Origin: Dictyostelium discoideum
Lineage: Eukaryota
Assembly (NCBI GenBank): GCA_000004695.1
Contig: CM000153.2
Span: 2,592,001-2,656,000 of the forward strand
Direction: 5' to 3'
Length of the DNA stretch: 64,000 nt
The notes under the pieces are model-generated. The model was not told where the DNA came from. It searched no databases and was given only the letters and a program-made list of their open reading frames with translations. The translations under genes were made by a program, and so were the position numbers. This document shows positions 29,558 to 38,669 of this stretch, piece after piece (position 1 is the stretch's first letter; the number at the start of each line of letters is the position of its first letter).

Positions 29558-31305
29558 TTAAGCCATATAATTATAAATCTTTCTGTCTTGTTTTGATCTT
29601 TCAAGATATTCTCTTTCAATTAAAGATTCGATACGTTTCTTTACAATGACTGGATTTGGAACAAAACGAGATTGAAGTTGCTTGATGACTTCAGAGACAA
29701 GATTAGAGTGTTCAAGTGTTTTACGAGCTTTCATAATACGAACGATGGAAGCTTCAATTTGATGTTTTCTATCTTCATCAACTTTATCACGAGTTTCTTT
29801 CTCTTCAACTGGTGTTTCTTTTTGAACGACTGCCATAACTTTAACACGGAATAATTTACTCTTAAATTTAGTATTAAAAGCGAATACATCGGATTCATCA
29901 ATTGATTTACTTGGTGTTGGAGTGGAGATTGAAGATGAACTACTAGATGGTGAAGTTGAAGTTGATGATGATGTTGCTGTTGTTGTTGTTGTTGTTGTTG
30001 ATGATGTTGTTGATGGTAATTCTCTATCTAAAATTTTATTCTTTGGATTTGTTAAAGCTAAAAGATTTCTCTTTAAATCAATAGTTGGAATACCAGTTTG
30101 ATCAGCAATCTCTTTAAAGGTTAATTTCGATTGGTCATTAAAGAGTAATAAGATGACCATTTGATAGGAGGAAACTTGAAGTTCGTGAGATTTCGAAGGG
30201 AAGTTTGCTTTAATTTCTGCGGTACCCATATTAGTTTGCCATAACAATAGACGACCATTATGATTTGATAGATAATAAGATTTGAAAGCCTCACAACATA
30301 AGAGGATTTCACGAGGTAAATTACAGTTTGCAGTGTTTTGAGTTGGCCAAAAACCAGTGGTTAAAACGTGAACATTCAAATCGATTGGTAATGCCTTCTT
30401 TAGATTTTGAATATAAGTTTTAAAACCACTCATTGTATCTTGTGATAATCTCATATCGGTGAACATACCCTCCAATTTAGATGTGAATTGATAGCCACAT
30501 TCTGTCTTTAACTTTGCAATCATGTTACGTTCTGCATCGTCTGATATACTTCTACCCAATAATAAACGTTTTGCTAAATGTTGTTTATAGTATTTTTCAA
30601 ATACATCCTTTTCTTGAATTAATCTAAACAACATCAATATCTTATCCAATATGATATCAACCTCTTCTTCACTAACTCCTTTTAATCCTTTCTTTAATTT
30701 CTCATCAATAAATAATGAAATATATTCTGGTGATTTTGGATTTAAATTTATAAAATATTCAAATGCCTAATAATAAAAATTTTAAAAAAAAAAAAAAATA
30801 ATTAGTAAAAACATAAAAAAAAAATAAAAAATATATATATATATATTTTTTTTTTTTATAGTTTTAAAAACTTACTTGTTGAATTGAATGAATGAATTGT
30901 TTATCATTATATAATGCATTTTGTAAAAGGTTATCATATTTATCTTTAAGATCTAATAATGATTGGAAATAAGTACCTGATTCTTTTGTCTAGATTTATT
31001 AATTATTATTATTTTTAAAATAAAAAAAATATTAATATCATGATATTAATTCCTTTTTTTTTTTTTACTTTTATTTTATAAATTATAAATTATATATTTA
31101 CCTTTTCTTCATCCATTACTATTCCTCTACCAATTTCTTTAACATAACTACTAATTACATCTTTCATTAAATTTAAACCATCTGATACTCTACTAAATAA
31201 ATTATACATTCTCTTTAAATCTTCAATCTTATCATCTTTTAACATTGAAATTAAACCAGAGTTTTCCATCTTTTTTTTTTTTTTTTGAAAAAAATAATTT
31301 ATTAA

Positions 31306-31347
<42 letters not shown>

Positions 31348-32319
31348 ATTATTTATTTTATAACTTACATCAATTAAAGTTCTCATATGATTTGAAATTA
31401 ATTGTTTTTCACAAACTTCTTTTAATTTTGGTTCAGAACTACTATCTAAATAATGTGAAACTCTTTCCAACTCTTCTTTTAAGCAAATTTCAACCTTTTT
31501 CATATAATCTGGACAACTACATGTTTGAATGAGAGTTTGTGATTGTGCTTGATAATGTGATGATGTCTTTAATAACAATGGTTTTTCAAAGTCTTCAATA
31601 TATACATTTTTAGAATTAACTCCTAAATCAATTAACATTTGAACTATATTTTTTATTAAAATTCTAAATTTAAAAAAAAAAAACAAAAAAAAAAAATAAA
31701 TAAATAATTAATACTATATTAATTATTATTTTATAAAACCACAACTAATAATAATAATAATAATAAATAATAATTTTAAAAAATTATAAATTTACCTATC
31801 AATAACTTCACCTTCTCTTTCTTTTTGTACCATTGATAAGAGAGTATTTAATAATCTATCTTTAATTGTTGAACAATGAGCCACATTATCTCTGAAAAGG
31901 TAAAGTCCAAGATCAAAAACACTAGAGAGATTATTTTGTTTAACATAGTTTCTATCCATATACATCAAGATATCTCTAATCATTAACATTGAAGTCTTGT
32001 GATTGATCCAACTCGAGTTTAATTCTAGTAGAAACTTTTCATCGATTGATTCTGATACAGTTTTAGCAACCGCTTTCAAATGTTTATCGACCATCTTCTT
32101 TAGATTATTGTATAATAAATCACCATGTTTTTGTAATACCATATTGTATCCGTTTCTATACAACTCTTCAAATGAGAGATTACTTGCATTTTGTTGATGA
32201 ATTTGTCTCATTGCTGTCTTTAATAATTTCCACGTTCTCTTTGGAAAATCTGGATCCGCTAATACTCCATGACTTTGTAAATTCTTGAATTGAATTTTAC
32301 CATTTGGTTTTGCCATCAT
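29558..32319 (-). CDS. culC: Cullin-3. Five exons: complement(join(29558..30766,30875..30989,31102..31269,31369..31663,31796..32319)).
   Basis: Collinear with CUL3 end to end: N-terminus ..LSFEELYRNGYNMVLQKHG..MIRDILMYMDRNYV..EREGEVIDR|ILIKNIVQMLIDLG..DYMKKVEICLKEELERV..LISNHMRTLID|MENSGLISMLK..|TKESGTYFQSLLDLKDKYD..|AFEYFINLN..IVRIMKARK..EREYLERSKQDRKIYNYMA. Donors GTAAAT, GTAAGT, GTAAAT, GTAAGT. The E4/E5 junction shows a 1-nt phase anomaly (see findings). Confidence 0.85.
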
Positions 32320-32930: not shown

Positions 32931-33157
32931 TTTCGCACACTAATTTTTTTATTAATTGTTTTATTTATTTTAATTTATATTTTTTTTTTTTTTTTATTAA
33001 TATGTGGGTGTGTTGAGTGGTACTATTATCATGAATTATTATTATCATTATATTAATTATCATTATTAATTTTGATTATCTTCACATATTACTTTTTTTT
33101 TTGTTTATTATTTTATTTTTTATTATTATTTTTTTTTTTTTTATTTTTATTTTTCAT

Positions 33158-33190
<33 letters not shown>

Positions 33191-33532
33191 TTCTTTTTTT
33201 TTTATAAAATTTATGTTCCAAAACTTACAAATTAAATAAATAGTATTTGAATAAATAAAACAAATATTTGTGTTGAGTGAAAAAAAAAAAAAAAAAATGA
33301 AAAATGGAAAAAAAAAAAAAAAAAAAATGAAAAAATCAACACAAATTTTCTATTTATATGAATATTCAATGAATGTAATATTACCAATATATTTCAAAAA
33401 AATTTTTTAATAATTTCAAAAAAAAAAATTTGAAAAAAAATGAAAAAAAATGAAAAATAAAAATTTAAAAAATATAAAAAATGTAAATTTGATCATGTGT
33501 TTCGTTGTTGTTGTTTTTCACCTTGTGGCACC

Positions 33533-33566
<34 letters not shown>

Positions 33567-33736
33567 TAAATAAATAAAAAAGCAGCTGATTAAATTGCCA
33601 TAAAAATGAAATTATAAAATAAAATGTTTCGTCTGATATTATTACAATTTAGATTATTTTTATTTTTAACTTTTTTTTAGTTTCCTTATATATCAAAAAA
33701 ATTACTTTTTTTTTTATTTCTTCTTTTCCAAATATA

Positions 33737-33773
<37 letters not shown>

Positions 33774-33776
33774 TGA

Positions 33777-33957
33777 TTATTCTTGTTTATACAAAAGATT
33801 TACAAATTCCAGTATGTGTTGCTTTGAAATTTCTACTATATCACCATTTGATACCATTTCATCAAGAATAAAATGTGCTTTATCCAAATTAAACATAATC
33901 TAAATATTAATAAATAAAATTAATGAATAAAAAATTAATAAATATCATTATTATTAT

Positions 33958-33991
<34 letters not shown>

Positions 33992-34348
33992 TACATCTAA
34001 CTCACACTATATTTGCAAATATTGATTGATTATAAAGAAGAAGAGATTATGGTTCGATTAGTTTAATAAATTAAAAATTATTAAATAAATTATTATAGAG
34101 ATAAAAAAAAAAAAACTTACAACATTATCAAAACAACTATCTAAAATTTCTACATAATTATGAATGAGTTCTAAAATTGCTAATTCATTTTCAGTTGTAT
34201 CAACACCAACAATAAAAAATAATGTTGCATACTTTCTATATATGACTTTATAATCTTTATATTCTACAAATGAACACTTTTTATTATAAACAATATATAT
34301 ATTAAAATGATGAAACTTTTGTTAATATACAATACTATAGTAGGTATA

Positions 34349-34413
<65 letters not shown>

Positions 34414-34566
34414 AAATAAACTTACTTGAATTTCAGTTCTTGATAAACATTTTCTAATAATTTCACTTTCCATTGCTGGTCTTTCTTCAAATGGTATTGA
34501 TTCATAATATTGCGATAATCTAGTTTTACCCCGAATATTTACAAGTAAAAAATATTTAATAGCCAT
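33777..34566 (-). CDS. ap4s1: AP-4 adaptor complex sigma subunit (small adaptin). Four exons including a 12-nt micro-exon: complement(join(33777..33899,33995..34006,34121..34276,34426..34566)).
   Basis: [47 protein letters not shown]|[52 protein letters not shown]|CELD|[23 protein letters not shown].. is closest to AP-4 sigma. The micro-exon TGTGAGTTAGAT is flanked by atatag and GTATGT. The (ATT)n repeat at 34350-34410 lies in intron 1. Confidence 0.8.
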
Positions 34567-34850
34567 AATTAAAATATGTTTTCGTCATCAAAATAAAAAA
34601 AAAAAAAAAAAAAAAATGAAGATTTTTTTTTTTTTCAAAAAAAATAAAAATAAAAAAAAAAAATTAAAATAAAAAAATAAATAAAAAAAAGCGATAGCGA
34701 AAATAAAATAACATTTTTGCAAACCATAAATAAAAAACAAATAAAAAAATATATTAAAAAATGTTTTTTATTTAATTTTTTTTTTTTTTAATTATAATTT
34801 TATCTTTTCCTATTTCTATTTATTATTATTTTTTTTTAAAAAATAATAAC

Positions 34851-35138
34851 TTATTTTGGTGGTTCAGTTTCTGGATCTAAATCTTTATGTTCCATACAAA
34901 CACCACAACAAATTCCTACTGCAGTATTACGAGCAAAAAATATTTGACCTGCACGGACATTACATTGGCCTGGAAATTGATCGGTACAAACAACATTCAT
35001 ACATGGGTTCTTTGGGTCAGTAATAATACTATTTAAATATGTTGAATCATAATAAACTTCTTCATTTGATAATGATAATTTGAATGAACAATATAATACA
35101 ATAGCTATTATTAAAATATTTAATAATTTAATATTCAT
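34851..35138 (-). CDS. Small secreted Cys-rich protein, 95 aa, single exon, unknown family.
   Basis: ATG start, signal-peptide-like MNIKLLNILIIAIVLYCSFKLSLS, 8 Cys in the pattern C..VVCTDQFPGQC....CCGVC. Clean stop. No family assignable from sequence alone. Confidence 0.45.
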   Translation of the reverse strand: MNIKLLNILIIAIVLYCSFKLSLSNEEVYYDSTYLNSIITDPKNPCMNVVCTDQFPGQCNVRAGQIFFARNTAVGICCGVCMEHKDLDPETEPPK

Positions 35139-36237
35139 TTTCCTTATTTTTTCTTTGATTTTCTCTTTATCTATTTGTTTATTTTTTGAAAATGTTTTTT
35201 TTTTTTTTTTTTTTAAAAATATTTATCAAAGAATGCAAAGAAATATTTATTTTTTTTTTAAATTTATTTTTTTATTTTAACTTTCCTTTTATATATTTTT
35301 TTTTTTTAAATTTTATAATTAAAAAATAAAAATTATTATAATAAATTTTAGACAGTTGTTACAATTGTAATATTTTTGTCATTTTACTAAAAAAACTTAA
35401 TACTCTCTCATTAATGGAAAATAACAATAATAGTAAAAATCCCAACTCATATTATGAATGCCCAAACACCATCTTGTTTTTTTCAAAAAAATAATAATAA
35501 ATGAAAAAAAAAAAAAAAAAAAACAAAAAATTAATCAAATACATTAAACAAACATATTTGCAACTTTTTTAAAATTATCCAATTTGGGTAAACAGTAATT
35601 TTATATTATGTTGTAATTAATTGTTTAATTTTTTTTTTTTTTTTTATAATTATGAATAATAAAAAAATAAAAATAAAAATAAAAATAAAAAAAAATTATA
35701 ACCACAAATTATTTTTGCATAGAACTATTGAACATATTAATATTTTTTATAATAATTAACCCTTATGTGTTTAAAAAAGGGTTAAATTTTTTGAATTTTT
35801 TTTTTTATTTCTATTTTTAAACACACATAAGCACAATTATTATTCTTTACTATATACGATTTGGATGATTCTTTTTTTTCTTTTTTTTTTTTTAATGATA
35901 TATTTTCATATTTGTTTAGTGAGGTGGTGGTGGGGTTTTTTAGTGTTTTCCAAAAATTAATAAATTTTACATTGCAATTTTTTTTTTTGTAATACAAAGT
36001 TTTAAATTAATTCCCAAGATTCTTTTTTTTTTTCAATTTATTTATACATCTTGTAAAATTTATAGTTTTTTTAATTCATATCTTTTGATTTTGTTTTTTT
36101 ATATAATTTTTTATATATTTAATTTTTTATATCCAATTATATTTTTAATTTTTAATAATACTTTATTTTATAAAAATTAAAATAAAAATAAAAATAAAAA
36201 TAAAAATAAAATAATTAAATCAAATTAATAAAAAAAA

Positions 36238-37449: not shown

Positions 37450-38669
37450 TTAATTTTCTTTTGTAAAAGATAAAACACCATAACTAACAGAAGAATCAGA
37501 AGATTTAATAACTTTACTTGATTGTTCATAATAGAGTGATGAGATATTATATTTAAATTGACTATTTTTTGTGATCCATAACATTACAGCAATTGGACAT
37601 CTACCACAAATTGTATTCTTTGTTTCTTTTAAATATTTTGAGAATTGAACAGGGTCACCACTTTCAATGATTTCCATTCCTTTTCTATCCAATTCTTCAA
37701 TGTATTTATAGATTGGGACCTCTTTATTCTCATATCTAGTATAACCAAATCTTTCACCCCAATGACAGAAATCTGATGAAATTACAAAAAAGTTTTCTGG
37801 ATCATCAAAATATGGTGCTAATATCTTTCCATATAACTCTTCCAAATCAATTGATAAACTTCCAACCATAATTGGTACAATACTTAATTCTAATAATCTC
37901 CTATTATATTTATTATTTATTTATTTATTTATTATTATTATTATAAAAACTTGTGTTAATATATTAAAAAAAAAAGGAATGGATGAATGAATGTATTTGA
38001 TAAATACTTTTCAGCAACTTTTGCAATATATGGTAATTGCAATTCTAAACTATGTTCATCTTCATCTACACTTTTTGTATTCCAAATGAAACTACCAGTA
38101 TCAAAGAGTTTATTTGTGGTATCTTTATCAACCTTTAAATTACCAATTGGTGTTTCCCATGTATCTAATTTAGTTAAACCACAAGTTTTCATATATACAT
38201 GATGTGATGGCCCTAAAATAAATACTCTCTTACTTTAATAATGATAATAATAATAATAATAATAATAGTAATTAGTACCAGTTAAAGATATAATTAAATA
38301 AAAAAAATAAAAAAAAATAATAAAATAAAGTAATAACTTACTAATTCTCTGGAATTAAATTAATATATGCATAAGCTGCTGCTCTACCACTGTAAGAATA
38401 ACCTGCATGTCTATTATTAATTATTAATGGTTATTAATTATTTTTAATTTTTAATGATTATAAATGATTATTAATTATTTTTAATTATTAATGATTATTA
38501 ATTATTAATAGTAAATATTTAGAAAAAGGTTACAAACATACGGTGCTATAATTGATTTGACATTTTGATTTTGACGAGAAGCTTCGCTTAACCAATCCGA
38601 TAATTGTTTCTCTAATTTCCTTGCATTGTCTAAATACCAACTACCTGCGTGTGTACAATTTCTAATCAT
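37450..38669 (-). CDS. MEMO1 homologue (mediator of cell motility 1 / UPF0103 family). Four exons: complement(join(37450..37900,38008..38232,38342..38410,38542..38669)).
   Basis: [34 protein letters not shown]|[22 protein letters not shown]|[56 protein letters not shown]|[53 protein letters not shown] is collinear with MEMO1. Donors GTATGT, GTAAGT, GTATTT. Phases 2/2/2 are consistent. Confidence 0.85.

Follow-up and report, generated by a model that had tools for sequence, protein, structure and literature searches.

How long is the sigma subunit of the AP-4 adaptor complex in Dictyostelium discoideum? The answer depends on 12 nucleotides. If they are exonic, the gene encodes a protein of 143 aa that contains the motif Cys-Glu-Leu-Asp (CELD); if they are skipped, the reading frame is kept and the product has 139 aa. 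We addressed this question in a 64-kb stretch of chromosomal DNA, hereafter the window, which is very AT-rich (14–31% GC per 2-kb window, ~20% overall). The first-pass annotation of the window had proposed a 12-nt CELD micro-exon at 33995–34006, with ATATAG as its acceptor and GTATGT as its donor, and the sequence bears out each of these particulars exactly.

The AP-4 sigma gene is small and lies on the minus strand, from an ATG at 34566 to a TAA stop (34566–33777). By translation, exon 1 (34426–34566; MAIKYF...SRTEIQ) contributes 47 codons and is followed by a GTAAGT donor and a 149-nt, phase 0 intron (34277–34425). Exon 2 (34121–34276; CSFVEYK...ILDSCFDNV) adds 52 codons, again with a GTAAGT donor. 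The upstream flanking intron (34007–34120; 114 nt, GTAAGT...ATATAG) falls in phase 0 between V99 and C100, and the micro-exon TGTGAGTTAGAT (33995–34006) encodes Cys100-Glu101-Leu102-Asp103. The downstream flanking intron (33900–33994; 95 nt), also in phase 0, separates D103 from I104, opens with GTATGT and poly(A), and closes with ATATTTAG. The last exon (33777–33899), preceded by TTTAG, ends in LLYKQE and the TAA stop. Read along the minus strand, the order is TTTGATAATGTT/gtaagt...(114 nt)...aaatatag/TGTGAGTTAGAT/gtatgtaaaa...(95 nt)...atatttag/ATTATGTTTAATTTGG. An AG acceptor and a GT donor thus directly adjoin the 12-mer, and the frame is kept across both phase 0 junctions. Without the 12-mer, the two flanking introns become one merged intron with canonical GTAAGT...TAG ends; the earlier proposal correctly placed the 12-mer inside such an intron, the length of which is 221 nt instead of the 220 nt given. 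An mRNA that includes the micro-exon would have the junction string ...GATAATGTT-TGTGAGTTAGAT-ATTATGTTT, for which GATAATGTTTGTGAGTTAGATATTATGTTTAA serves as the read-search string. A skipped mRNA would read GATAATGTTATTATGTTTAA, with the peptide ...CFDNVIMFNLDK across the 34121-to-33899 join, and the peptide strings that would tell the forms apart are ...SCFDNVCELDIMFNLDK with CELD and ...SCFDNVIMFNLDK without it.

Several features of the surrounding sequence were recorded alongside. A long (TAT)n microsatellite, ~25 units without interruption, lies in intron 1 (34340–34415), and start-to-stop gene length ranges from 682 to 790 nt among the Dictyostelium loci. Poly(A) runs of ~30–35 nt occur at 33950–33990, directly 3′ of the GTATGT donor of the micro-exon, and at 33740–33775, directly 3′ of the stop; the intronic run is kept, with varying length, in group-4 species and D. 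purpureum. The gene is flanked downstream by a multi-exon cullin gene (29558–32319, minus strand) and upstream by a small, Cys-rich, secreted-looking ORF of 95 aa (34851–35138, minus strand), with a Memo-family gene at 37450–37869 (minus strand). The Memo–AP4S–cullin order is kept in other Dictyostelium assemblies, and the AP4S–cullin adjacency also occurs in D. purpureum and P. violaceum.

The identity of the gene was examined with the 143-aa product, residues 3–140 of which match positions 2–139 of the 142-position Clat_adaptor_s profile (Pfam PF01217), a full-length match. The score of 154.1 bits falls to 132.8 bits if CELD is left out. Human AP-4 sigma-1 is the best match among solved structures (E 1.9e-51, gap-free alignment), ahead of AP-1 sigma (4.8e-37), AP-2 sigma (3.7e-30), AP-3 sigma (8e-29), and zeta-COP (1.6e-6). 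Removing CELD yields a 139-aa sequence that exactly matches the annotated D. discoideum AP-4 complex subunit sigma. These comparisons uphold the original assignment of the gene to the AP-4 complex sigma subunit. As had also been anticipated, CELD aligns without gaps to the SELD or CELD of AP-4, AP-1, AP-2, and AP-3 sigma proteins, with SELD in human AP-4 sigma-1 and CELD in AP-1 sigma.

Could the 12-mer be a decaying relic or a coincidental match within a single 221-nt intron, with the 139-aa protein as the true product? This explanation agrees with the reference AX4/UniProt model, which several automatic annotations repeat. Against it, the expected number of sites in which a CELD-coding 12-mer is bracketed by AG and GT is 8.7e-9 per 221-nt intron of matching base composition, and no such site appeared in 300,000 shuffles. 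The micro-exon is the only AG-N12-GT candidate within the merged intron, and its AG-CELD-GT site is found nowhere else in the 64-kb window, both strands considered. A chance origin of the 12-mer is excluded. An intron-hosted RNA or an overlapping gene was likewise considered as the cause of conservation and rejected, given that Rfam returned no match in 33000–35500 and that neither strand of the merged intron holds a competing ORF. A GTGAGT within the micro-exon (T/GTGAGT) was rejected as a functional donor, as it is not conserved and most species have GAA there.

The relic explanation also has to account for how the site has evolved. We compared the D. discoideum locus with those of six other Dictyostelium assemblies and of D. 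purpureum, P. violaceum, A. subglobosum, H. album, T. lacteum, and C. fasciculata. The 12-mer is kept in all 13 dictyostelid loci examined, and every difference is synonymous. In the seven-way Dictyostelium alignment, the AG acceptor, the codons TGY GAR TTR GAT, and the GT donor are retained, with TGT/TGC, GAG/GAA, and TTA/TTG as the only, synonymous, variants, while the flanking introns of these seven loci drop to 59–68% identity with many indels. A stand-alone CELD micro-exon bounded by AG and GT is likewise found in D. purpureum (L007, 1943–1954), P. violaceum (L008, 2044–2055), and H. album (L010, 2081–2092), where the surrounding introns are otherwise unalignable. CELD is encoded at 17 of 17 loci overall; the variable sites are third-codon positions and the synonymous first position of Leu (TTR/CTN). 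From this substitution pattern, the 12-mer appears to be under purifying selection. Synonymous-only changes and the maintenance of both splice sites across 13 dictyostelid loci, when intron sequence cannot even be aligned between genera, are hard to reconcile with decay, as is a true product that lacks four residues invariant throughout the family. We therefore regard a relic or chance match as extremely improbable.

Three of the species serve as natural controls for the reading of the 12 bases. A. subglobosum, T. lacteum, and C. fasciculata have no upstream intron, and in each the 12 bases extend the upstream exon in frame (...EQV-CELD/gtaag...). The downstream intron is present in all 13 dictyostelid loci, including these three. 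At two of the compared loci, an additional intron was observed between ...VDxSE and NELAIL (P. violaceum, L008, 1501–2269; H. album, L010, 1501–2309). This E/N intron also occurs in Vitrella, Nematostella, Physcomitrium, and human AP4S1, in the last of which it bounds the exon for residues 76–98. P. violaceum and H. album keep the full four-intron layout known outside Amoebozoa, and D. discoideum has lost the E/N intron (compare 34121–34276).

A different objection is that the 12-mer is a genuine exon used optionally. As a regulated cassette, it would give rise to both 143-aa and 139-aa mRNAs, and the skipped form would be a functional variant without part of the cargo-signal pocket. Residue by residue, the protein can be placed on AP-2 sigma2: the two align without gaps at an offset of one, so that C100–D103 correspond to sigma2 C99–D102. 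In the Nef–AP-2 structure (PMC3901399), sigma2 C99 and L101 touch the residue that comes just before the dileucine, and the flanking V98 and L103 form part of the lining of the leucine pocket. By analogy, CELD would lie in or around the dileucine-signal binding region, and AP-4 sigma may use a dileucine pocket as AP-2 sigma2 does.

AlphaFold2 models speak to both sides of the cassette reading. The 143-aa form is predicted with a mean pLDDT of 90.8, with residues 97–100 forming a loop after helix 78–96 and residues 101–106 a short helix before helix 108–118. The 139-aa form still folds (mean pLDDT 87.9), with the local 10-residue block falling from 87 to 74 and helix 101–106 lost. The predicted structural penalty for omitting CELD is modest and only supportive of inclusion. 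In further favor of a cassette, skipping is in frame and the merged 221-nt intron has canonical ends. The first-pass annotation had noted that skipping would keep the frame and delete four conserved residues, which holds, and the degree of conservation is what weighs against a cassette: C100, E101, L102, and D103 are invariant in all 102 aligned AP-4-sigma-like homologues, including transcriptome-derived ones. Moreover, lineages that have lost one of the two introns cannot skip the 12 bases alone, which means that Dictyostelia as a whole do not conserve a form without CELD. Exon skipping is also uncommon in Dictyostelium. We consider a regulated cassette very unlikely, and constitutive inclusion, rather than partial skipping, most likely on conservation and protein-family arguments.

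How would such a short exon be recognized? The upstream intron contains a branch-point-like ACTAATC motif (34056–34062, minus strand), the putative branch A of which lies 51 nt from the 3′ splice site and which is kept in the seven-way Dictyostelium alignment. A CTAAT motif occurs 27–52 nt upstream of the acceptor at each of the eight distinct loci in which the intron is present. Upstream of the micro-exon acceptor, a C/T-rich tract, CTCTTCTTCTTT (34034–34045, minus strand), stands out in an intron of 12% GC, is kept in D. discoideum-clade loci, and may act as a polypyrimidine signal. In the downstream intron, GTATGT is joined by a poly(A) run and, 17–35 nt from the acceptor, by TTAAT or CTAAC. 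Each of the two flanking introns thus has a donor, a branch-like motif, and an acceptor of its own and resembles the short introns typical of Dictyostelium. If short introns are recognized one by one, the two could be removed independently, and a special micro-exon factor would not be needed. With only 12 nt between the acceptor and the donor that follows, sequential removal is probable. The sigma subunit encoded by the mature mRNA would then have 143 aa and include the invariant CELD.

Public records were also searched for the spliced junctions. Neither the included nor the skipped form matched metagenome or metatranscriptome contigs, using an exact D. discoideum-clade pattern and a degenerate pattern for micro-exon-bearing dictyostelids. 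Exact-protein look-ups returned genomic NCBI records only, with no assembled transcripts among them. A full-text literature search for Dictyostelium and microexon yielded only a TopHat command-line option in RNA-seq methods and nothing addressing this exon, and the Dictyostelium TSET paper holds nothing on an AP-4 sigma cDNA. On the genomic and protein-family evidence, we are nonetheless highly confident that the 12 nt at 34006–33995 on the minus strand are a true coding exon of D. discoideum AP-4 sigma, most likely a constitutive one, that the 139-aa form is a merged-intron artefact, and that the exon is inherited and ancient.

The age of the exon becomes apparent outside Amoebozoa. In the cnidarian Nematostella vectensis, the corresponding region reads ...FDSV/gtaagt...(2042 nt)...ttttgcag/TGTGAGCTGGAT/gtatcc...(654 nt)...ag/IMFNIDK, and in the alveolate Vitrella brassicaformis ...FENV/gtcagt...(176 nt)...cag/TGCGAACTGGAC/gtaagt...(103 nt)...ag/IMFNLEK. 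Both genes, like that of D. discoideum, place a 12-nt CELD exon between phase 0 introns at V/C and D/I (L014, 3240–3251, in Nematostella; L015, 944–955, in Vitrella). Unlike the D. discoideum reference, both models are annotated correctly, and the introns of these outside orthologues reach 2 kb, compared with ~100 nt in D. discoideum. Human AP4S1 is alike in part: one of its exons codes for residues 76–98, and the c.294/c.295 exon boundary corresponds to V98/S99 (PMC6167175, PMC12110826), which matches the position of the D. discoideum upstream intron (V/C). Physcomitrium has the V/C intron only and no D/I intron, and the AP-4 sigma gene of Oscarella is intronless. The Q/C boundary between exons 1 and 2 is common to D. 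discoideum, Nematostella, Vitrella, and Physcomitrium.

Both intron positions are therefore much older than Dictyostelia, which makes the micro-exon an inheritance rather than a local novelty. On these intron positions, the exon looks ancient, and ancient introns with lineage-specific loss appear to be the most economical reading. We somewhat favor an ancestral eukaryotic micro-exon, in which the phase 0 introns at V/C and D/I predate the Amoebozoa/Metazoa/Alveolata split and the exon was later either kept or merged by precise loss of one intron. In this ancestral reading, the upstream intron was lost by Cavenderia, Acytostelium, and Tieghemostelium, and the downstream intron is the one absent from Physcomitrium. 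Parallel gain of introns at identical positions and phases is a conceivable but less economical alternative.

If the exon is real, why does the reference protein lack it? The curated D. discoideum AX4 reference (EAL64916/XP_639923; UniProt AP4S_DICDI) has 139 aa and no CELD by exact-sequence look-up, and it stems from gene finders merging two introns. The 143-aa form with CELD is already in GenBank, in three independent automatic models, each named "hypothetical protein", that belong to recent assemblies of D. discoideum (KAM9942712, KAM9960054, and KAM9976898). The earlier expectation that gene finders routinely miss exons of this size was well founded, since at least six dictyostelid models besides the reference lack the CELD residues. 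CELD or more is missing from the models of D. discoideum AX4, D. cf. discoideum, D. citrinum, D. purpureum, P. violaceum, A. subglobosum, and H. album, and several recent automatic annotations give the 139-aa form. The omission extends to five residues (VCELD) in A. subglobosum and to ten (CELDIMFHID) in H. album. The T. lacteum and C. fasciculata models include CELD, and in these two species the 12 bases belong to the upstream exon. The micro-exon is thus missed almost whenever it stands alone.

Two of these models show further irregularities. In that of A. subglobosum (L009, 1851–1885), splicing apparently starts at a GTATGC that shares bases with the codon for Val and precedes the post-CELD GTAAGT by 15 nt, which takes out VCELD without shifting the frame; this may be a true alternative donor or a mistaken prediction. 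The D. citrinum model (P0003; KAN0041585.1) also carries an extra VSSKYK after ...TEIQ, at the equivalent of 34420–34430, and so may have another wrongly placed splice site, at intron 1.

The D. discoideum exon has parallels in other eukaryotes. A vertebrate neuronal microexon programme, reportedly described by Irimia et al. in 2014, is said to consist of tissue-regulated, SRRM4-dependent cassettes and to include a 9-nt microexon in AP1S2. Like the exon examined here, that of AP1S2 lies in a sigma adaptin, a paralogue, where it alters a protein interaction surface; the D. discoideum exon differs in coding for invariant core residues, and nothing points to its regulation. In plants, conserved microexons of ≤15 nt are 23–81% unannotated depending on the genome, and their flanking introns tend to splice late (Yu et al. 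2022, PMC8831610). The resemblance to these plant cases is close: a conserved core-domain motif is encoded by a tiny exon that keeps the frame and is itself conserved among species, and omission of that exon from the reference gives a wrong protein (PMC8831610). The present case differs from them in being amoebozoan, in having introns of ~100 nt, and in having been found by homology and comparative genomics rather than RNA-seq (PMC8831610), and adaptor or clathrin genes are not mentioned in the plant study (Yu et al. 2022, PMC8831610).

Leaving the micro-exon out is an error that recurs in dictyostelid annotations; the feature itself is of a known kind and exposes a known failure of gene finders. 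It corrects gene models and adds no new biology, with the small surprise that the exon is common to a cnidarian and an alveolate. The correction itself is simple, 143 aa in D. discoideum, and it matters in practice: expression constructs, structural models, alignments, and evolutionary analyses built on the faulty entries inherit a deletion of four residues (five in A. subglobosum, ten in H. album). Homology-guided rescue of micro-exons is needed in AT-rich amoebozoan genomes, for which this locus supplies an example of a 12-nt exon common to three eukaryotic supergroups. If the exon is indeed ancestral, the AP-4 sigma gene would offer a compact natural series on the survival of very short exons and on precise intron loss.
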